A DNA stretch of 12,208 bases from Candidatus Parcubacteria bacterium. Lineage in GTDB: Bacteria; Patescibacteriota; Patescibacteriia; CAIXNZ01. The stretch covers positions 1-12,208 of the forward strand of contig JAPLYC010000095.1 in assembly GCA_026395755.1 (NCBI GenBank), given 5' to 3'. This document shows positions 3,497 to 11,899 of this stretch, piece after piece. Position numbers and translations under genes: made by a program. The number at the start of each line of letters is the position of its first letter. Within the stretch, counting starts at the first letter, position 1. The notes beneath the pieces are model-generated. The model made no database searches, was not told the DNA's origin, and saw nothing but the letters and a program-made list of their open reading frames with translations.

Positions 3497-6400
3497 ATGG
3501 TAGCAGAGGTCAGAAAAAGTCCATTGTTACTCGGACAGTTTGTCTGGGTGGCCAGTAAAAAGGACGGCACGATCAAGTTGATTATCGGGCCGGATCCTTT
3601 GGAAGTTACCGAAGACGATATCCCCATGATGCCCAATGCCCAGAATCCCTGGGAATTCGGGCCTGTGGAGATCACTCAAGCGGTGCAGCGCTTTGTTACG
3701 CTCAAGCCCCATCAGTACGCCGTGATTCATAATCCGGTTGATTCTGATACTGACACAGATTACCCGAACGGCAAGTACAACAAGGGCAAGAACGAGATGA
3801 AGCCCCTGAAATACGGCACCAAGAGAGTCGTGATTGCCGGTCATTTCCCGGTTTGGCCGGGACAATGGGTGGAGGTCAGAGAAATCCATCGTCTGGACTC
3901 CAAGCAATACATAACCGTCGTGGTGGAAAAAGTGCCGGTCGATGTAAAGGCTCCTTATTACGAGTTGACTGTAGCCTGCGCTGACATCAAGAAGGCAGTG
4001 GTCGATGAAAATACTGTCAGCAAAGAACCGGCCAAAGAAGTCGTCAACGAATCCGGAAACGATCCGGCCAAGGGAACAGAATCCGCTCAAAATCAAAATT
4101 CCAGTCAGCCGGCAGCTACTTCGGAAAAACCACAGGCCACAGTTCAGCCGGCAGCTACTTCGGAAAAACCACAGGCCAAAGTGCCGGAAAAACCGCAGGT
4201 CTCGCCTCTGGAAAAAGGGGTATCAGGTAAAGATCCAGATGCACCGGTTTTCAAGGTCGGACAAAGAATCATTATCCCCGGCAGCAAGACCGAGACTTAC
4301 ATTCCGCCGACCGGGATTGAGGTGGACAGGAATAAGGCTGTCAAACAGCCGGAATCCACGCGCCATCTGGATCCCAAGGAAGAGCTGCAGGATAAAATCA
4401 CGTCTGGCCAGATCAAGATCGAGACCATGGAGCAGCTTATAAAACGGGTTGGCCTGGAAGATGATCTTTTCGAGGCAGTCCGTGATAGATACACCAGTCT
4501 GCGTGAAGCAGGCAAGAACCGCAATGCTTTATATGAGGCGATCACATCGATATTCGATCGTTCTCATCTCATGAAGCTACTTTCCATTTTTATGGAAAAT
4601 ACCGCTGTCAATCAGCAGGCAACCAGAGACTCGGACGAAGCCGTGTGTGAAGCTGTGGTTTTAGGCCCCACCGAATTCTGCGTGGTTGTGGATGAAAACG
4701 GCATGCCGAATTCGCACAAGGGTCCTGGCCGGGTTTTCCCCGGTCCCAATGACACCTTCCGCACGCAGGGTTCTCGAAATCGCGTCTATGACGCCTATCA
4801 TCTGCGCGAAGATCGCGGCCTGCTTTTACGGGTAGTGGCTGATCAGATCACCAAGAAGGATCTGCTCGAGAAACTGCCTGAAGCCGTGGCCAATCAGCTT
4901 AACAAGGAAAAATACACCAAGGGAGATGAAATTTTCATCTCCGGCTTCGATGCCTACCTGGTGCCTTATTACAGCGTCTTTGAGGTCATTGACCCGGAAA
5001 CCAGGAATCCCCATATCGGTAATTCCCATGGCGGGGTTTATGTCCAGGCCATAGGCATCGATCAAAAAAGCGGTATCTACGTGATGAAAGTAGAAACCGG
5101 GGAAGTGGAACTGGTCAAGGGCAAAGCAAAGCTCCTGCTGGATCCGCGTAAACAAAAGCACATGAAACGGCGGGTACCGGGCAAGATTTGGAATCTGCTC
5201 ATCGGTTATGGAGAACCTCACAAGGCCGTCAGTCCGGACTCGGTGGTGGAATCACCCTGGGCGTTATCAGTTCAGGTACCCAATAATATGGCCATGCTTC
5301 TTACCAGTCGCACTGGCCGGCGTGTTGTTCTGGGACCTCAAACCACCTTGCTGGAGTTTGACGAATCACCTGAGATTCTCCACATTTCTGTCAATCGTCC
5401 CAAAACAGAAAAAGACACCAAACAAACGGTTTTCCTCTGGGTAACCGGCAATCGGCCGACTGACCAGGTGGAACTGATTACCGCTGACAAGGCTGTGATC
5501 AAAGTCGATGTTCAGTACGAGGTGGAATTTTCCGCCTCGGATCCCAAGGAACAGGAAAAATGGTTCCTGTACAAAAACTATGTCTGGATGCTGGCATCCA
5601 ATGCCCGCAGTCGGCTGCGCAATGCGGCCGAGCAGGTGTCGTTTGCCGTGCTGAAGGACAGCATTTCCGAATTTGTCAGGAATGTGATCCTGGGCAAAAA
5701 ACCTGAAGGCGTCGCTCATCGGCCGGGACTGCCATTTGAAACTTGCAATCTGCGGGTTACGGAAGTGGAAGTCCTGGACTGGGTGGTGGATGATCCGGAG
5801 ATTGCCAAAGCCTTGGCAACGGCCAATAAAGCGGCGGTAAACCGGGAAATTCAGGTCGGCGAAGAAAAATCCGCTCTGGAAGCGGAACAGGCCAAGGATC
5901 AAATCGCCGTGGAGAAAGCAGCTCTGGTGCTGCGTCAGACCAAGCGGTCGGCCGAAACCGAACTGGGCAAAAGACGCATCGTCGACGAGAGCGAAAAGTC
6001 GGCCTTGCAGATTTCCCAGGAGCGCGAAGCCAGGATGGCTGAGGCCGAACTTACCAAAAGCCGACTGGTTGAACAAACGGCTGCTGTCAAAGACGAGATC
6101 AACATCGAGGCAGCCAAAAGAACCGCGGCAGCTCAGCTGGAGCAGTCTCAGATCATTGACCAGAAAGCGGCCAAGGAACTGGAACTGAAAAAAGCCGCTG
6201 CTCTCAGAGATGCGGCAGCCAAGGAAGAAATCAACAAGCAAGAGCAAGCGCTGAAGAAATTGGTGGTCGAGCTTCAGCAGGAGATCGAGCTGATTCGGCT
6301 GGCAAACTGCTCTGTGCTGAGTCTCAAACAGCAGGAGCTGGATATCAAGATGTCCGATGTCAACCGTGAGCTTCACGAAAAAGACACCAGATCCCAAATG

Positions 6401-6757
6401 GCGCTCAAGGCAGAAGACGATGCCAAACTCGTGGAGTTCAGTAAGGCTTTGGCCGACATTCAGGCCGCGCTTTACACTTCTGAGGCTGAGGCTGATGCCA
6501 AGCGCATCGCAGCTCTCCAGGAAAAACTGGTGGAAGCGATCGAAGGACTGGGCAATAAGCAGGTTCTGGCTGAACTGGCTCAGCACCTGCCCGGAGCCAC
6601 TGGCACTCTCGGATTACTTCTGGGCAAAGGCGGCTTAGACGCCATCGAAGGAATGTGTGGGGGCACGAAGCTTATCGATGCCATTCACAATTTAACCGGC
6701 AGGATTCAGCAACACAAAGAGGAATCTGCAAAAGTCGGTGAGGAGTTGAAGTCCTGA
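3497..6757 (+). CDS. Major Vault Protein (MVP) homolog, full-length architecture (N-terminal vault repeat domains, SPFH/band-7-like shoulder, long cap-helix coiled coil, cap-ring), 1086 aa with a disordered insert
   Basis: Shine-Dalgarno site AAAGGAGAA 8 nt upstream of the ATG. Several segments resemble metazoan MVP as recalled from memory (no alignment could be run): N-terminal ...LKPHQYAVIHNPV... (cf. VPPRHYCTVANPV); ...TYIPPTGIEV... (cf. GTYIPRKEVEV); ...GIYVMKVETGEVELVKG... (cf. GIYVQDVKTGKVRAVIG); ...RVVLGPQTTLLEFDE...FLWVTGNRPTD...ITADKAVIKVDVQYEVEF (cf. RVVFGPELVSLGPEE...LLLGPDFFTD...[21 protein letters not shown]); shoulder ...AAEQVSFAVLKDSISEFVRNVILG (cf. [27 protein letters not shown]). 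A 180-aa A/E/K/Q-rich heptad-like coiled coil follows (residues about 780-960), then a G-rich C-terminal cap-ring-like tail. Confidence 0.9.
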   Translation: MVAEVRKSPLLLGQFVWVASKKDGTIKLIIGPDPLEVTEDDIPMMPNAQNPWEFGPVEITQAVQRFVTLKPHQYAVIHNPVDSDTDTDYPNGKYNKGKNEMKPLKYGTKRVVIAGHFPVWPGQWVEVREIHRLDSKQYITVVVEKVPVDVKAPYYELTVACADIKKAVVDENTVSKEPAKEVVNESGNDPAKGTESAQNQNSSQPAATSEKPQATVQPAATSEKPQAKVPEKPQVSPLEKGVSGKDPDAPVFKVGQRIIIPGSKTETYIPPTGIEVDRNKAVKQPESTRHLDPKEELQDKITSGQIKIETMEQLIKRVGLEDDLFEAVRDRYTSLREAGKNRNALYEAITSIFDRSHLMKLLSIFMENTAVNQQATRDSDEAVCEAVVLGPTEFCVVVDENGMPNSHKGPGRVFPGPNDTFRTQGSRNRVYDAYHLREDRGLLLRVVADQITKKDLLEKLPEAVANQLNKEKYTKGDEIFISGFDAYLVPYYSVFEVIDPETRNPHIGNSHGGVYVQAIGIDQKSGIYVMKVETGEVELVKGKAKLLLDPRKQKHMKRRVPGKIWNLLIGYGEPHKAVSPDSVVESPWALSVQVPNNMAMLLTSRTGRRVVLGPQTTLLEFDESPEILHISVNRPKTEKDTKQTVFLWVTGNRPTDQVELITADKAVIKVDVQYEVEFSASDPKEQEKWFLYKNYVWMLASNARSRLRNAAEQVSFAVLKDSISEFVRNVILGKKPEGVAHRPGLPFETCNLRVTEVEVLDWVVDDPEIAKALATANKAAVNREIQVGEEKSALEAEQAKDQIAVEKAALVLRQTKRSAETELGKRRIVDESEKSALQISQEREARMAEAELTKSRLVEQTAAVKDEINIEAAKRTAAAQLEQSQIIDQKAAKELELKKAAALRDAAAKEEINKQEQALKKLVVELQQEIELIRLANCSVLSLKQQELDIKMSDVNRELHEKDTRSQMALKAEDDAKLVEFSKALADIQAALYTSEAEADAKRIAALQEKLVEAIEGLGNKQVLAELAQHLPGATGTLGLLLGKGGLDAIEGMCGGTKLIDAIHNLTGRIQQHKEESAKVGEELKS
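4106..4183 (+). repeat. perfect-core tandem repeat 2 x 39 bp inside the MVP gene, encoding QPAATSEKPQATV / QPAATSEKPQAKV within a P/Q/A/S/T/E/K-rich linker
   Basis: cagccggcagctacttcggaaaaaccacaggcca occurs at 4106-4139 and again at 4145-4178 (34/34 identical); unit length 39 nt, in frame. It lies within a ~75-aa low-complexity insert (residues about 175-250) that interrupts the vault-repeat region. Confidence 0.9.
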
Positions 6758-6798
6758 CAGTAGAACCCAAGCTGTCAACTTCATAATTATTAACAATA

Positions 6799-6835
6799 AG
6801 CCCCATTCCGCATTGCGGGGTGGGGCTTTTTCTTA
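6799..6835 (+). terminator. rho-independent terminator downstream of the MVP gene
   Basis: AGCCCCA...TGGGGCT 7-bp GC-rich stem around a loop containing a nested CCGC-ATT-GCGG hairpin, immediately followed by TTTTTCTT (6827-6834). It lies 42 nt after the stop codon. Confidence 0.7.
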
Positions 6836-6846
6836 TCCGTCATAAT

Positions 6847-6875
6847 TTGACCAAAAAATAGGGGGGTGATATAAT
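6847..6875 (+). promoter_or_regulatory. near-consensus sigma70-type promoter: -35 TTGACC (6847-6852), 17-nt spacer, extended -10 TGaTATAAT (6867-6875)
   Basis: The -10 hexamer TATAAT is perfect and has a TG at -15/-14. The -35 matches 5/6. It sits 33 nt upstream of the ArsR-family gene start. Confidence 0.65.
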
Positions 6876-6908: not shown

Positions 6909-7169
6909 ATGAATTTGCATAATACAATTTCGGCTATGGCCGATCCTACCCGTCGTAAGATCCTGGAGCTTTTGAAAAGGGAAGATATGGCTGCTGGCCA
7001 GATTAATAAGCATTTCCAGATCACGGCGCCGTCTTTGACTCACCATTTGAATATTTTGCGCCAGGCTGATTTGGTAACCAGCCAGAGACAGGGGCAGGAA
7101 ATTATTTATTCCCTGAATTTAAGCGTGTTTGAAGAAGTGGCTCAGGCGCTTATTAAATTTTTCAAATAA
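6909..7169 (+). CDS. ArsR/SmtB-family winged-helix transcriptional repressor (SdpR-like), 86 aa
   Basis: ...DPTRRKILELL...MAAGQINKHFQITAPSLTHHLNILRQADLVTSQRQGQEIIYSL... is the canonical ArsR helix-turn-helix plus wing. No metal-binding Cys motif is present. It is followed 33 nt later by an SdpI-family gene. Confidence 0.85.
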   Translation: MNLHNTISAMADPTRRKILELLKREDMAAGQINKHFQITAPSLTHHLNILRQADLVTSQRQGQEIIYSLNLSVFEEVAQALIKFFK

Positions 7170-7202
7170 AAATTAATAATTAGTAATTAAAAATTTGTCT
7201 AT

Positions 7203-7874
7203 ATGTCTAATCCAATTAAACCAACGATAAAAACTGAAATCATTCCGCTTCTTTTAATTATTATTTCTGTTGTGGCTTCCTTTTATTTTTATGCCAATTT
7301 TCCCGAACAGGTTCCCATGCATTGGAATATAGCCGGCCAGGTGGACGGCTGGGGCAGCAAGACCACCGGAGCCATTATTTTGCCGTTGGTAATCATTGCT
7401 ATGTATGTGATGTTTTTATTGATCCCATATCTTGATCCGAAAAAAGATCGCTATGAACAATTTGTCAAAGTCTATCATATCTTTAAAAACTATCTTATCG
7501 GTTTCATGGTTTTGGTTTATTTAGTCACGGGTCTGGCCGGGCTTGGTTATGATGTGCCTGTTGGCCTGATTATTCCTATTGGCGTAGGCATTTTATTTAT
7601 TTTGATTGGCAATTACATGGCCAAGATAAAAATGAATTGGTTTATGGGTATCAGAACACCCTGGACTTTGTCATCGGAAGAAGTTTGGAATAAGACCCAT
7701 CGCATGGGCGGTAAGATTTTTATGCTGGGCGGATTTTTGATAATTTTGACCGGTATAGCACCCCTTAGTTGGCGTTTACCCATCTTTATTCTGACCATGG
7801 TTTTGTTGATATTTGGTACGATAGGGTATTCATATTGGGTTTATCGAATTGAGAAAAATAAAAAAGTTGGTTGA
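7203..7874 (+). CDS. SdpI/YhfL-family integral membrane immunity/signal-transduction protein with N-terminal DUF1648, 223 aa
   Basis: Four or more hydrophobic transmembrane segments. DUF1648-like motif PMHWNIAGQVDGWGSK. The SdpI-family signature region, quoted from recalled family consensus (the B. subtilis SdpI sequence itself was not reliably recalled), is ...NWFMGIRTPWTLSSEEVWNKTHRMGGKIFMLGG. Confidence 0.8.
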   Translation: MSNPIKPTIKTEIIPLLLIIISVVASFYFYANFPEQVPMHWNIAGQVDGWGSKTTGAIILPLVIIAMYVMFLLIPYLDPKKDRYEQFVKVYHIFKNYLIGFMVLVYLVTGLAGLGYDVPVGLIIPIGVGILFILIGNYMAKIKMNWFMGIRTPWTLSSEEVWNKTHRMGGKIFMLGGFLIILTGIAPLSWRLPIFILTMVLLIFGTIGYSYWVYRIEKNKKVG

Positions 7875-7967: not shown

Positions 7968-9791
7968 ATGTCCTGGATTTTCAATACACTCAAAAGATTA
8001 GCCAAAAAGAAAAGCTTTTGGATTGTTTTAATTATTGTGGTAATTATCGTGATAGTTATTTTAAATATGATCAAAGGCAAAAAAACAGTCTATACCATGG
8101 AAAAGGTTAAGCTGGGCAATTTAGTTCAGACAGTTTCGGAAACCGGAACCGTGGAATCAGCTTCGGCCATTGACCTGAATTTCAAAGGCAGCGGGAAATT
8201 GGCTGAATTGAAAGTTAAAGAAGGCGACAAGGTCAAGTCAGGACAATTGCTGTCTCGTTTGGATGCCGGTTCTTTGGAAATTGCAGTGCGTCAGGCACAG
8301 GCCAATGTTGATATTGCTCAGGCTAATTTAAACAAATTGTTAGCCGGTGCCAGCGCCGAGGATCTTAAAGTCACGGAAGAGACGGTTAATAATGCCAGAA
8401 TTGCTTTTGAAAATGCCAAAAATAATTATGACAATTCTTTACTGAAAATTGACGCTGATACCACGACTTATGAGCAGGCAGTTACGGCAGCGCAAACAAG
8501 CTTGGATAATACTAAAAATACTTATACCAAAAGTGTGTCTGATGCCCGACAGAATTTATTAACCACCTTGCGCAATAAAGCCAATGTGGCTAATACCAGT
8601 TTGGATTTCATCAATTACCAGTATAATAATTTAAACAATGTCAGCGATCAGCAGGCCAAGTCCAATACCATGTGGTCATATAATTTAGCCATGGATAATA
8701 AAACTAAATTGGTTAATTTTTTAAACAAATCAGATCAGTCCATGAGCGAGGATGAAATTACCCAGGCAGGTGCGACTGCAATTACTCTTTTTGAGCAAAT
8801 AAATGACAGTTTGAATAATTTATTTAATTGCATTAGCTCAACCGTGATTGATGCCCGTTTTTCTCAGCTTTTGGTAGATAATGCCAAAGCCTTAGTTAAA
8901 GCCGAGCAGACAGCGGATAGCGCAAATTTATCAGCCTTGCAGGCTGCTGACCAGACTTACAAGACAGCAAAATTAAGTTATACCAGCGTGGTTGATACTG
9001 CTACTTCAAATCTGACTACTGCTCAAAATAATCTGAATTCTGTCTTGGCTAATAAGGATGTTTCCACGGTTACAGCTAAAGCGGCTTTAGATTCAGCCCA
9101 AGGGGCATATAATCTGGCCAAAGCGCAGTTTGAACTGAAAAAGGCCAAGCCGCGTCTCGTTGATATTGGATATTATCAGGCTCAGGTCAACCAGGCCGCA
9201 GCCGCCCGAGATTTAGCCCTGAATAATTTAAATGATTATATTATTTTTGCGCCGACAGACGGCGTAGTGACTTTTGTTAATTATAAATTAGGCGAACAGA
9301 TCGGTGTGGCTAGCACTAAATCTGCAATTTCCATGCTGGGTACGGGTGATTTTCAGATTAAAGTTGACGTTCCGGAATCAGATATCATTAAAATTAAAGT
9401 CGGCGATCCGGTGAAAATTACTTTGGATGCCTATGGCAGCGCGGATGTTTTTGAAGGCAAAATAGTCTCCATTAATATTGCCGAGACTGTGATCCAAGAT
9501 GTGGTTTATTATAAAGTTACCGCGCAAATAGATCCCACTGACAAAGAAATTAAATCAGGCATGACAGCCAATGTTGATATTATTACGGCTACAGCGGAAA
9601 ATGTCTTATCTCTTTCCGGTCGGGCAATTAAACAGGATGAAACCGGTAAAAAATATGTGGAGATTTTAAAATTCGGCAATAATGTTGAAAAAGTTATGAT
9701 TGAAACAGGAATCAAGGCTGATACCGGAACAGAAATTAAAAGTGGTTTGCAGGAAGGCCAGGAAGTCATAATTTCAAAAACTCAAAAATAA
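7968..9791 (+). CDS. HlyD/MacA/YknX-type periplasmic adaptor (membrane fusion protein) with N-terminal transmembrane anchor and an unusually long N/Q/T/A-rich alpha-helical hairpin, 607 aa
   Basis: N-terminal transmembrane segment FWIVLIIVVIIVIVIL. The biotinyl/lipoyl-like half-motifs (...LAELKVKEGDKVKSGQLLSRLD... and ...FAPTDGVVTFVNYKLGEQI...) flank about 300 aa of heptad-like low-complexity helix. The C-terminus has beta-barrel/MPD-like segments. It is followed at 4-nt spacing by the ABC ATPase. Confidence 0.85.
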   Translation: MSWIFNTLKRLAKKKSFWIVLIIVVIIVIVILNMIKGKKTVYTMEKVKLGNLVQTVSETGTVESASAIDLNFKGSGKLAELKVKEGDKVKSGQLLSRLDAGSLEIAVRQAQANVDIAQANLNKLLAGASAEDLKVTEETVNNARIAFENAKNNYDNSLLKIDADTTTYEQAVTAAQTSLDNTKNTYTKSVSDARQNLLTTLRNKANVANTSLDFINYQYNNLNNVSDQQAKSNTMWSYNLAMDNKTKLVNFLNKSDQSMSEDEITQAGATAITLFEQINDSLNNLFNCISSTVIDARFSQLLVDNAKALVKAEQTADSANLSALQAADQTYKTAKLSYTSVVDTATSNLTTAQNNLNSVLANKDVSTVTAKAALDSAQGAYNLAKAQFELKKAKPRLVDIGYYQAQVNQAAAARDLALNNLNDYIIFAPTDGVVTFVNYKLGEQIGVASTKSAISMLGTGDFQIKVDVPESDIIKIKVGDPVKITLDAYGSADVFEGKIVSINIAETVIQDVVYYKVTAQIDPTDKEIKSGMTANVDIITATAENVLSLSGRAIKQDETGKKYVEILKFGNNVEKVMIETGIKADTGTEIKSGLQEGQEVIISKTQK

Positions 9792-9795
9792 GGTT

Positions 9796-10521
9796 ATGAC
9801 AAAAAATTTACTAATTAAATTGGAAAAGATTGAAAAGGATTATACCAATGAAGAGGTGGTCACCCGAGTTTTAAAGGGTGTAAATCTGGAAATTGCCCAG
9901 GGGGAATTTGTGGCTGTGATGGGTCCGTCCGGCTCCGGCAAGTCAACCCTGATGCATATTCTGGGTTTTTTGGATAAACCTACGGCGGGTAGGTATCTGT
10001 TCAAGGGTAAAGATGTCAGTAATCTGGCGGATGATGAATTGGCTGAAATCAGGAATGAAGAAGTAGGCTTTATTTTTCAGGCATTTAATCTGCTGCAGAG
10101 AACCAGCGTTTATGATAATGTGAAATTGCCTTTGACCTACAGTAGTAAAAAATTTGATAAAAACAAGGTGACTAGCGCGATCAAGTCTGTCGGCTTGTAT
10201 CATCGTCTGAATAATTTATCCAATCAGCTTTCCGGCGGTGAAAAACAGAGGGTGGCGATTGCGCGTGCCTTGGTCAATGACCCGTCAATTATTTTTGCTG
10301 ACGAGCCGACCGGTAATTTGGACTCCAAATCAGGCAAACAGATTATGGAAATATTGCAGGATTTAAATGAGGACGGTAAAACGATTATTTTGGTTACTCA
10401 TGAAAAATATACGGCTGAACATGCCCGCAGGATTATAAAAATCGTGGACGGAGAAATCGTTGATGATTATCAGGTTAAAGAACGTCTGATTGCCAAATTC
10501 GAAAAAGATTTAACCAAATAA
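9796..10521 (+). CDS. ABC transporter ATP-binding protein, MacB/YknY/LolD/FtsE-type, 241 aa
   Basis: Walker [11 protein letters not shown]-loop, ABC signature [15 protein letters not shown], Walker [13 protein letters not shown] and H-loop VTHE are all present. Confidence 0.95.
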
Positions 10522-10525
10522 TAAT

Positions 10526-11767
10526 ATGGAATTGACTTCTACTTTAAGACTTGCCTTTAGTGGTTTGAAGTCAAAAAAGACCCGAACATTTTTAACAATG
10601 CTCGGGATTATTATTGGCATTTCCTCAGTTATCATTATTATTTCCGTCGGTGCCGGCGCTCAAAGTCTGATTTTAAATCAGATCAAGGCTTTGGGTTCCA
10701 ACCAGATTTCCATTTTTCCCGGGGCTTCGGAAGAATCAGGCCCGCCACCGAGTGTTTTTGGCTCAGCCAATACCAGTCTGAAAATTGAGGATCTGGACGC
10801 TCTTAATAATAAACAAAATGTGCCGCACGTAGTAGCTATTACTTATTATGTCAGGGGGACAGCGACAATGAAATGGCAGGATAGTGAATTTAACGGCACC
10901 TTTGTGGCTACGACAGCGAGTTACCCCGAAGTTCATGATATTGCGGTGGCTCAAGGCAGATTCTTGGATCAGGACGAGGAAAAAAATCTGGCCAAAGTTG
11001 TGGTCTTGGGCGCCAATGTCAAAGATGAACTGTTTGGAGATGAAGAAGCTATCGGTCAGCTGATTAAAATAAAAAAACACGAGTTCCGGGTCATCGGCGT
11101 GATGGCCAAAAAGGGAACCACGGGTTTTGAAAATCAGGATAATTATGTTTTTATCCCGGTTTCTACCGGACAAAAGATAATGTTGGGAATTGATTATATT
11201 TCTTTGGCCAGGGTGAAAATTGATTCTCAGGAAAATGTTAATCAGGCAGTTGCAGACATTAAGGCTGTTTTGCGTGACCGCCATAATCTGGATAGTAAGG
11301 AACTGGATGATTTCACGGTACGCGCCCAGGCGCAGGCCATTGAGATTTTTTCTTCTATTACCAATTCTTTGACTTATTTTTTGGCAGCAATTGCCGCGAT
11401 CTCACTTTTGGTCGGAGGTATCGGCATCATGAATATTATGTTAATAGCGGTAACGGAAAGAACCAGGGAGATCGGTCTGCGCAAGGCTTTGGGCGCCAAA
11501 AGAAAAAATATTTTAAGCCAATTTTTAATTGAGTCAATAGCCGTTACTTTACTCGGCGGAATTATAGGCATAATTTTTGGTATTGTAATATCATTATTGG
11601 TGGCCTTTATTGCCAGATATCTTGGCTATAACTGGGATTTCGTAATTTCCATTTCCGCGGTATTTTTATCATGTACAATCTCAATTATGGTTGGTTTGTT
11701 TTTCGGACTTTACCCGGCTTTCAAGGCTTCGGAATTAAATCCGATTGAGGCCCTTCAGTACGAATAA
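10526..11767 (+). CDS. ABC transporter permease, MacB/FtsX family (N-terminal transmembrane helix, large extracytoplasmic MacB-PCD-like domain, C-terminal FtsX 3-transmembrane bundle), 413 aa
   Basis: The N-terminus has a TM helix LTMLGIIIGISSVIIIISVGAGAQ; a ~230-aa extracytoplasmic domain follows, then FtsX-like helices ...LLVGGIGIMNIMLIAVTERTREIGLRKALGA.... Spacing is 4 nt from the ATPase gene. Confidence 0.9.
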   Translation: MELTSTLRLAFSGLKSKKTRTFLTMLGIIIGISSVIIIISVGAGAQSLILNQIKALGSNQISIFPGASEESGPPPSVFGSANTSLKIEDLDALNNKQNVPHVVAITYYVRGTATMKWQDSEFNGTFVATTASYPEVHDIAVAQGRFLDQDEEKNLAKVVVLGANVKDELFGDEEAIGQLIKIKKHEFRVIGVMAKKGTTGFENQDNYVFIPVSTGQKIMLGIDYISLARVKIDSQENVNQAVADIKAVLRDRHNLDSKELDDFTVRAQAQAIEIFSSITNSLTYFLAAIAAISLLVGGIGIMNIMLIAVTERTREIGLRKALGAKRKNILSQFLIESIAVTLLGGIIGIIFGIVISLLVAFIARYLGYNWDFVISISAVFLSCTISIMVGLFFGLYPAFKASELNPIEALQYE

Positions 11768-11770
11768 TGC

Positions 11771-11899
11771 TACAAATATACAAATATTGTAACAAATGAT
11801 TACAAATAAGGTTTTATGAAGTTATAAGAGGTTATATTATGTTGTAAAAGGTTGCTGGAAAAAATTTGTAGTAATTTGTATTTGATTTGTATATTTGTA
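11771..11899. repeat. AT-rich intergenic element bounded by a 15-bp inverted repeat (TACAAATATACAAAT ... ATTTGTATATTTGTA) and studded with TACAAAT/ATTTGTA heptamers
   Basis: 11771-11785 tacaaatatacaaat and 11885-11899 atttgtatatttgta are exact reverse complements. Additional ttacaaata / tttgtagtaatttgtatttgatttgta iterations lie inside both arms. The element occupies the whole 141-nt gap between the two permease genes. Confidence 0.5.

Follow-up and report, generated by a model that had tools for sequence, protein, structure and literature searches.

The window analysed here is a stretch of 12,208 nucleotides from a contig (JAPLYC010000095.1) of a Candidatus Parcubacteria bacterium, and its principal subject is a gene on the forward strand, at positions 3497–6757, which encodes a bacterial member of the MVP (major vault protein) family. 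The gene opens with ATG, runs for 1086 codons without internal stops and is the sole long open reading frame (ORF) in the window; its product of 1086 amino acids (aa), with a mass of 120.6 kDa and a pI of 5.8, is identical to a database protein which is annotated as hypothetical and comes from a Candidatus Parcubacteria metagenome-assembled genome (MAG). A GGAG ribosome-binding site, as read from the sequence, lies on the same strand at 3484–3487, some 10 nt 5′ of the ATG, and the choice of start codon is supported by the near invariance of the first methionine across 84 homologs. Beyond the stop codon stands an intrinsic terminator (6798–6838, forward strand), in which a 14-pair stem (6798–6828) with nine G–C pairs is followed by TTTTCTT. 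An earlier annotation made from the DNA alone, hereafter the sequence-only reading, had described an intact gene with bacterial translation signals, its own terminator and no frameshifts, and the GGAG, the ATG, the open frame and the hairpin with its T run are indeed all seen. The four peptides which it quoted are likewise all located in the protein, at aa 69–81 (LKPHQYAVIHNPV), 267–276 (TYIPPTGIEV), 526–542 (GIYVMKVETGEVELVKG) and 609–623 (RVVLGPQTTLLEFDE).

The homology to MVP is certain. The Pfam model MVP_shoulder (PF11978) matches aa 654–762 with an E-value of 1.3e-16 (61.2 bits against a cut-off of 25), and a phmmer search of all PDB sequences returns MVPs only, with rat MVP at E 1.2e-21. 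The alignment to the rat protein falls into three colinear stretches (query 62–126 to rat 46–106, 266–447 to 149–337 and 517–910 to 378–794), the first two of which are colinear with rat repeats R1–R7. An AlphaFold2 model of the monomer, built on the 84 homologs, has a mean predicted local distance difference test (pLDDT) score of 79, rising above 90 over aa 10–170, 250–280 and 300–770. When this model is compared with the PDB by Foldseek, MVPs of rabbit, human or rat take all of the first 12 places (E 1e-26 to 1e-32, over about 1000 aligned columns), and the murine R1–R7 crystal structures rank next at E 1e-12, such that the stacked beta-repeat wall is matched by fold. A search of the BFVD library of viral folds gives matches at the SPFH level only. 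In other words, the shoulder model is significant and the predicted fold is that of MVP, R1–R7 included, and not a generic SPFH fold, so the identification as an MVP homolog in the sequence-only reading stands. Moreover, 16 columns are invariant and about 100 nearly invariant across the 84 homologs, which is indicative of purifying selection.

The domain anatomy was read from the secondary structure of the model, the phmmer register and the family alignment, that is from one-dimensional output rather than from the coordinates of the model. On this basis the protein begins with three beta repeats (3518–4336, forward strand as for all the segments that follow; aa 8–280), of which the first spans aa ~8–61, the second aa 62–132 and the third aa 133–280. 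Repeat 3 is interrupted by a disordered loop rich in Pro, Gln, Ser and Lys (4013–4237; aa 173–247; 75 aa; pLDDT below 50), which agrees with the ~75-aa disordered insert proposed earlier. Family members differ in the length of this loop (14–86 aa), and within it lies a 39-bp tandem duplication (4105–4182; 2.0 copies by Tandem Repeats Finder) whose copies are 97% identical; the loop is therefore still evolving. The segment that follows is an all-helical insert module of ~100 aa (4337–4636; aa 281–380), consisting of five helices between aa 293 and 377 (pLDDT 86–96), which occupies exactly the position of rat R4–R5 (107 aa). It bears a semi-conserved motif, and profile–profile comparison of the module with the beta repeats finds no similarity between them. 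Around two-thirds of the family, Myxococcota members included, carry a segment in the R4–R5 slot (69–154 aa, mostly ~90–115), and some 25 short members (832–910 aa) have just 0–24 aa at this position.

Downstream of the helical module are four further beta repeats (4637–5455; aa 381–653; pLDDT above 90), equivalent to rat R6–R9 and bounded at aa 381–427, 428–515, 516–580 and 581–653. The phmmer register places aa 385–447 on rat 277–337 and aa 517–653 on rat 378–519, and the last two repeats align to rat R8 and R9. There follows the SPFH-like shoulder (5456–5794; aa 654–766), over most of which the PF11978 match extends, as the sequence-only reading had anticipated, and then a cap-helix region (5795–6547; aa 767–1017) with helices at 767–893 and 902–1017, of which aa 763–910 align to the rat cap helix in the phmmer output. 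At ~250 aa this region is longer than the ~180-aa coiled coil first assigned to it, and longer also than the ~155 aa of eukaryotic MVP, in keeping with the earlier claim that the C-terminal region exceeds that of metazoan MVP. In the long class to which the protein belongs (shared by members of the P0002, P0003 and P0009 type), the cap helix contains one contiguous insertion of ~87 aa relative to most of the family. The two halves of the region co-vary in length, for which a hairpin was considered; a contiguous insertion fits a straight helix equally well. Finally, a Gly-rich C-terminal region (6548–6754; aa 1018–1086; LEGLGNKQ...LGLLLGKGG...GGT) is strongly conserved in both the Patescibacteria and the Myxococcota clades, and is a candidate cap-closing element.

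In human MVP a pocket for NAD+ or ADP lies between neighbouring shoulders, where a keyhole loop contributes R504, K506 and R511, with R507, P508, H509, R437, D521, W545 and others as further pocket residues (PMC12280208). The keyhole loop, of sequence GRPK, is found in the bacterial protein as R634-P635-K636, and K636, the human counterpart of which is situated between neighbouring subunits (PMC12280208), is invariant across the 84 homologs. R511 is replaced by K642 and D521 by N652, and the other pocket residues are not conserved. The basic GRPK loop at the subunit interface is accordingly ancient, but that the bacterial protein has kept nucleotide binding cannot be claimed from such a comparison.

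On the same strand, 55 nt upstream of the MVP-like gene, ends a gene (2365–3441) for an acidic helical-repeat protein of 358 aa and 41 kDa, with a net charge of −46 and a pI of 4.4, in which about six repeats of ~50 aa can be discerned. A single-sequence AlphaFold2 model of this protein is all-helical, of low confidence and uninformative (pLDDT 43.5). It has no Pfam match, a search of 5.8 billion proteins for homologs returned only the acidic protein itself, and for both it and the MVP-like protein there was no usable match in NCBIfam, none among the PADLOC defence-system models and no meaningful one in PHROG. The closest relative of the locus (L001), in a Patescibacteria genome whose MVP is 51% identical, has at the same position an orthologous acidic gene of 302 aa (26% identity, E 5e-28), and another close relative (L008) has there an acidic ORF of 154 aa. 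Distant Patescibacteria loci have no acidic neighbour and no other conserved neighbour gene.

The two genes are preceded by what is probably a sigma-70-type promoter (2192–2220, forward strand), made up of TTGACA at 2192–2197, a 17-nt spacer and TAAGTT at 2215–2220. The promoter is set within 26 conserved bases; GCTTGACAAACAA-N6-TTTTGTTAAGTTG is identical in L001 (1176–1208), 5′ of the orthologous acidic gene, and after it a second box, ATTTGACAA, is common to both. It appears that the acidic and MVP-like genes are transcribed together from a conserved promoter. Between them is a perfect 7-bp hairpin (3446–3462, forward strand; GTCCGCC-TTT-GGCGGAC) with a 3-nt loop and without a T tract, which, as a guess, might serve in processing or stabilising the transcript or in setting the ratio of the two products. 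The acidic protein may be regarded as a putative lineage-specific partner of the MVP-like protein, whether as cargo, as a lining of the lumen or as an assembly scaffold. The synteny with L001 extends to both sides of the two-gene module: a tRNA-Glu(CTC) lies upstream in each (window 748–820; L001 1037–1109), and genes for HlyD, ABC and MacB proteins lie downstream in each.

The module differs in base composition from its surroundings. The guanine-plus-cytosine (GC) content is 0.46 in the acidic gene and 0.52 in the MVP-like gene, against 0.36–0.42 in most flanking genes, such that the low-GC genome of the sequence-only reading is a correct description of the flanks and not of the gene itself. 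The same offset of the module is found in L001. In a comparison that took in loci L001–L010, L013, L030, L045 and L047, the GC content at third codon positions (GC3) of the MVP gene exceeds that of its neighbours in 10 of the 11 Patescibacteria-clade loci, and also in the archaeal, Myxococcota and Planctomycetota loci checked, and it tracks the GC of the host. The largest shift in the window is that of C/(C+T) in two-fold codons, with values of 0.46 for the MVP-like gene, 0.39 for the acidic one and 0.18 for the pooled flanks. An explanation of the GC excess by un-ameliorated horizontal transfer was considered and set aside, since orthologous modules whose proteins are 51% identical have the excess in common, it follows host GC from locus to locus, and it is strongest in C- versus T-ending two-fold codons. 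The codon bias instead suggests translational selection and high expression of both genes, given that the offset is maintained at a protein divergence of 49% and varies in step with the composition of the host. High expression would be in keeping with a structural protein that is needed in many copies.

Relatives of the protein are numerous. The databases hold 91 others, 37–51% identical and 830–1114 aa long, of which most are encoded in MAGs of Patescibacteria (Moraniibacteriota, Buchananbacteria, Parcubacteria and others) and several are labelled 'major vault protein' by JGI. A pattern scan of GTDB, with one genome per species, finds 427 stretches encoding relatives, the best 80 of which are distributed over Patescibacteria, numerous Myxococcota, a few of the Planctomycetota and one archaeon. 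When 1.84 billion representatives at 50% identity are searched with a profile, E ≤ 1e-30 is reached by 693 proteins and E ≤ 1e-3 by 1587. Bacterial MVP-like genes, which had been called rare in the sequence-only reading, are on these counts uncommon, and not rare in absolute number. A neighbour-joining (NJ) tree, which is rough (377 core columns, without support values) and was read leaving out L009, L015, L017/L047 and L077, for which the wrong ORF had been entered, places the Patescibacteria in one clade that is sister to Myxococcota and Planctomycetota, with metazoan MVPs on a separate long branch. The core of the protein is 52–72% identical to others in the Patescibacteria clade, 40–45% to those of Myxococcota and Planctomycetota and 24–28% to those of metazoa. 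The protein, as judged from this tree and these identities, is of a deep bacterial lineage and not a recent eukaryote-to-bacterium transfer. One entry in the clade deserves separate mention: an MVP gene from an 'uncultured Gammaproteobacteria' MAG (L003, CAYPKD010000004.1) falls among the Patescibacteria and has flanking ORFs with an average GC of 0.32, for which reasons the label or binning of this MAG looks doubtful.

The GC of 0.52 in a gene with flanks of 0.36–0.42 could be taken as a sign that the gene is an artefact of assembly or binning, or was recently acquired from a eukaryote and is decaying, without function here. The intact 3.3-kb frame with its bacterial ribosome-binding site, promoter and terminator speaks against this explanation, and it is effectively refuted by flanking synteny with another Patescibacteria genome, by the more than 80 homologs of 37–51% identity, mostly in Patescibacteria MAGs, and by the low core identity to metazoan MVP. 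The contrast drawn in the sequence-only reading between an expressed, functional gene and a decaying transfer is thus sound as regards intactness; the transfer to which it alluded is not applicable to a deep bacterial clade.

The family extends also to viral sequences. A scan of IMG/VR finds 198 viral stretches that encode relatives, most of them on contigs of 40–500 kb and with identities of 24–31%. Amongst them, a copy on a 194-kb contig (L083:5980–8616) is 44% identical to that of the window and adjoins an R2K ATP-grasp gene, and another (L086:5947–8532; MVP_shoulder E 4e-29) has a primase-like gene on one side and a gene for a family-A DNA polymerase on the other. MVP-like genes seem far commoner in large phages than the two published cases would indicate, and the bacterial and viral MVP family as a whole is, on these counts, much larger than one would gather from the literature. 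Some of the 'viral' contigs in IMG/VR may be misclassified small genomes; L084, for example, is a 424-kb contig of a 'Nanoarchaeia' MAG.

With such copies in view, the gene could belong to a mobile or viral gene pool, its product acting in conflict between phage and host, either as a compartment exploited by phages or in defence. The IMG/VR copies with their replication and ATP-grasp neighbours, the report of MVPs in phages (10.1101/2023.11.10.566534), the location of the module just downstream of tRNA genes in several loci and its composition unlike the flanks all lend this genuine support. We nonetheless regard such a role as distinctly unlikely: the Pfam scan of the window reveals no integrase, capsid, terminase or other phage gene, PADLOC gives no match and PHROG no meaningful one, the position is syntenic in two genomes whose copies are just 51% identical, and the scaling of the composition offset with host GC is indicative of selection rather than of recent transfer.

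The more probable role is a structural one. It is moderately probable, in our estimation, that the protein forms a soluble, self-assembling, ring-symmetric dome or closed vault-like cage, with the acidic protein as its partner. The soluble dome or cage is preferred because a vault-type repeat wall lies below the shoulder and there is no membrane anchor, and assembly into a ring or cage has its precedent in all the solved proteins with a shoulder and a following helix, namely MVP, HflK/C, QmcA, stomatin, prohibitin, erlin and flotillin. In such an assembly, an abundant soluble cytoplasmic shell protein would associate side by side with copies of itself, rings would form by way of the SPFH-type shoulder and the long cap helix, and the stacked beta repeats would make a thin wall below the ring. 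The product would be a ring-symmetric dome or, if two domes were to pair via repeat 1, a closed vault-like cage. Its wall, of some seven beta repeats with the helical module in place of R4–R5, would be shorter than that of the eukaryotic particle; the disordered loop would project from the third repeat, the cap would be longer, and the acidic helical-repeat protein might be carried as cargo, line the lumen or act as a scaffold for assembly.

The shoulder itself raises a different prospect, in which the protein is a membrane-apposed half-dome or scaffold, in the manner of prokaryotic SPFH assemblies (HflK/C, QmcA, flotillin-like proteins), and not a free closed vault. The shoulder has the SPFH fold, and after the MVPs both fold searches list SPFH cage proteins (prohibitin, erlin, HflK/C, stomatin and flotillin; about E 1e-6 in the Foldseek comparison above), such that the non-MVP structural neighbours are all membrane-bound domes. 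Furthermore, eukaryotic vaults themselves have recently been observed in situ in association with membranes (PMC13100048), and the envelope systems HlyD, ABC and MacB are encoded downstream in both syntenic genomes. This SPFH likeness is, however, confined to the shoulder. Neither a Band_7 (PF01145) match in Pfam nor an N-terminal membrane anchor was found in the protein, searches for a transmembrane segment, a signal peptide and a lipobox in it were negative, and its most hydrophobic 20-mer has just 12 hydrophobic residues out of 20. The N-terminal 650 aa, moreover, consist of vault-type wall repeats that have no counterpart in membrane SPFH proteins, and the envelope neighbourhood is common to L001 only and not to other loci of the Patescibacteria clade. 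A membrane-apposed half-dome is accordingly held to be unlikely.

Several observations weigh against the soluble dome or cage, or against its likeness to the eukaryotic vault. The term 'vault nanocompartment' presupposes oligomerisation and cage closure, both of which are inferred, the structure predicted here being that of the monomer. The claim in the sequence-only reading of similarity across all MVP domains goes too far, since the R4–R5 slot is helical and, of the vault-repeat models considered (PF01505, PF17794, PF17795 and PF17796), Vault_3 (aa 593–646, 21.1 bits against 28.8) and Vault_2 (aa 67–123, 18.6 bits against 23.6) score below their cut-offs and PF01505 and PF17796 are without a match in the Pfam scan. 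The model reads as about seven beta repeats, compared with nine (R1–R9) in rat and human MVP, a count which profile–profile comparison among the repeat segments does not confirm (the best pairing, R3 with aa 428–515, reaches 47% probability). Both the number of repeats and the inserts thus differ from the only MVPs that are proven to form vaults. In the pocket, R507, P508, H509 and W545 of the human protein are not conserved, nor is R437, which falls in a deletion. The cap-helix region is predicted at a pLDDT of 53–80 with a low-confidence break at 888–902. The acidic gene is limited to the closest two or three relatives, so the partner is specific to a sub-clade and not a general component. 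An Rfam scan of the whole window by E-value yields tRNA-Glu only and no vault RNA, and a Pfam scan of the neighbouring genes in the window finds no TROVE, NACHT, WD40, PARP or vWA domain, and hence no TEP1- or PARP4-like partner. Vault RNA, TEP1 and PARP4 are absent from many eukaryotic lineages too, and so have no bearing on membership of the MVP family. Finally, Patescibacteria cells measure just ~200–300 nm across, and published cryo-tomograms of these organisms are not known to have shown vault-like particles. The fullest form of the proposal, that Patescibacteria and some large phages build a true closed and highly expressed prokaryotic vault of seven beta repeats plus a helical module, with an acidic cargo or lining in one sub-clade, is possible though doubtful.

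One of the closest known systems is eukaryotic MVP (rat, human and rabbit; PDB 4V60, 4HL8, 6BP7, 9BW5 and 9Z4W), with which the protein is colinear in domain order from the beta repeats through shoulder and cap helix to the Gly-rich C-terminus. In R8, R9 and the shoulder the two have motifs in common, amongst them GIYV, VP.N.A, RVV.GP and the G-x-P-K loop. Beyond the low core identity, the reduced set of repeats, the helical module, the 75-aa loop in R3 and the longer cap-helix region already described, the window protein differs in having no match above cut-off to PF01505, PF17794 and PF17796 and in having no vault RNA, TEP1 or PARP4. The MVP-like proteins of Myxococcota, Bacteroidota and Cyanobacteria (for example Plesiocystis pacifica A6FXM1 and Corallococcus H8MNI3; PMC3762200, bioRxiv 10.1101/872010) belong to the same bacterial family. 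They share the C-terminal motif, and many have a ~90–115-aa segment in the R4–R5 slot; the window protein is set apart from them by its phylum, by the greater length of its disordered loop, by the extension of its cap helix and, in its sub-clade, by the acidic partner gene. The MVP homologs of Asgard archaea, compared here by their published description and known from structure prediction only, likewise have a cap helix, a shoulder and fewer repeats; they are reported to have five repeats, and one half of these proteins falls with eukaryotic MVPs, in contrast to the seven or so repeats, the helical module and the bacterial clade of the window protein (PMC12962969). Repeat number therefore varies among accepted MVP homologs. 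SPFH/Band-7 proteins (HflK/C, QmcA, stomatin, prohibitin, flotillin and erlin), conversely, are anchored in membranes and are without a vault-type wall, whereas the window protein has neither anchor nor Band_7 domain.

Reviews still call vaults exclusive to eukaryotes (PMC11855390, PMC9778704). MVP homologs in Myxococcota, Bacteroidota, Cyanobacteria and Herpetosiphon were nevertheless identified and modelled in silico in 2012–13 (PMC3595041, PMC3762200) and revisited in 2019 (bioRxiv 10.1101/872010), two phage MVPs followed in 2023 (10.1101/2023.11.10.566534), and the Asgard homologs were reported in 2026 (PMC12962969). Bacterial homologs as such are not new, and the window protein is one of this uncharacterised kind; it merits a record for traits particular to its lineage, namely its helical module, disordered loop, long cap and acidic partner. 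A literature search found no experimental study of any bacterial MVP, as the sequence-only reading had supposed, and no paper pairing MVP with Patescibacteria, the only one in which vault, MVP and 'candidate phyla radiation' occur together being concerned with Borg elements.

Since 1986 the question of what vaults do has stood without an answer. In this regard, the occurrence of intact, conserved and apparently highly expressed MVPs in the reduced genomes of Patescibacteria argues for a function basic enough to be kept by a minimal cell, one that would run without vault RNA, TEP1 or PARP4. A module of two genes, MVP and acidic partner, is easily expressed and imaged, which makes the question of a bacterial cage and its contents directly testable, and the many copies on large viral contigs provide a second lead. 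Should the prokaryotic vault prove to be true, then the depth and diversity of the bacterial clade would imply a prokaryotic origin of the vault architecture, or one among the viruses of prokaryotes, and a minimal system of compact genetics would be at hand in which to learn what vaults do.

The remainder of the window is occupied by genes of other kinds. Between the tRNA and the module lie a 369-aa ORF (811–1920), whose listed TTG start overlaps the tRNA and which comprises 250 uncharacterised N-terminal aa and, as its C-terminal third, a PEP-utilising 'mobile' domain (PF00391), and a 59-aa ORF (1941–2118; MIIKRQGKWCVVSENTGRSFGCYATKKEAQHRLKQVEFFK...); both are absent from the syntenic L001 locus. 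Transfer RNA genes stand just upstream of the MVP module elsewhere too, three of them in L006 (5044–5377) and a tRNA-Gln in L010 (5695–5766), an adjacency that may be due to chance, to a highly transcribed neighbourhood or to an old integration site. Downstream of the module, at 6909–7874, come an ArsR-family regulator of 86 aa and, after it, an SdpI/DUF1648 membrane protein of 223 aa; the pair resembles the SdpR/SdpI immunity pair and has its own strong promoter (6847–6875), and in L001 this position is taken by a MazE-like gene. The HlyD-type adaptor, ABC ATPase and MacB-type permease that come next (7968–11767) form a tripartite efflux operon, of which L001 has two MacB copies. Near the other end of the window, a small GIY-YIG protein of 84 aa (389–643; GC 0.235) is encoded just downstream of a 14-bp tandem repeat, AATTAGGGATTAGG, present in 2.3 copies (186–217), and a similar small GIY-YIG-like ORF is seen just downstream of the MVP gene in L010. 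Short AT-rich tandem repeats with units of 8, 10 and 20 bp (11771–11899) follow the MacB gene near the end of the contig.

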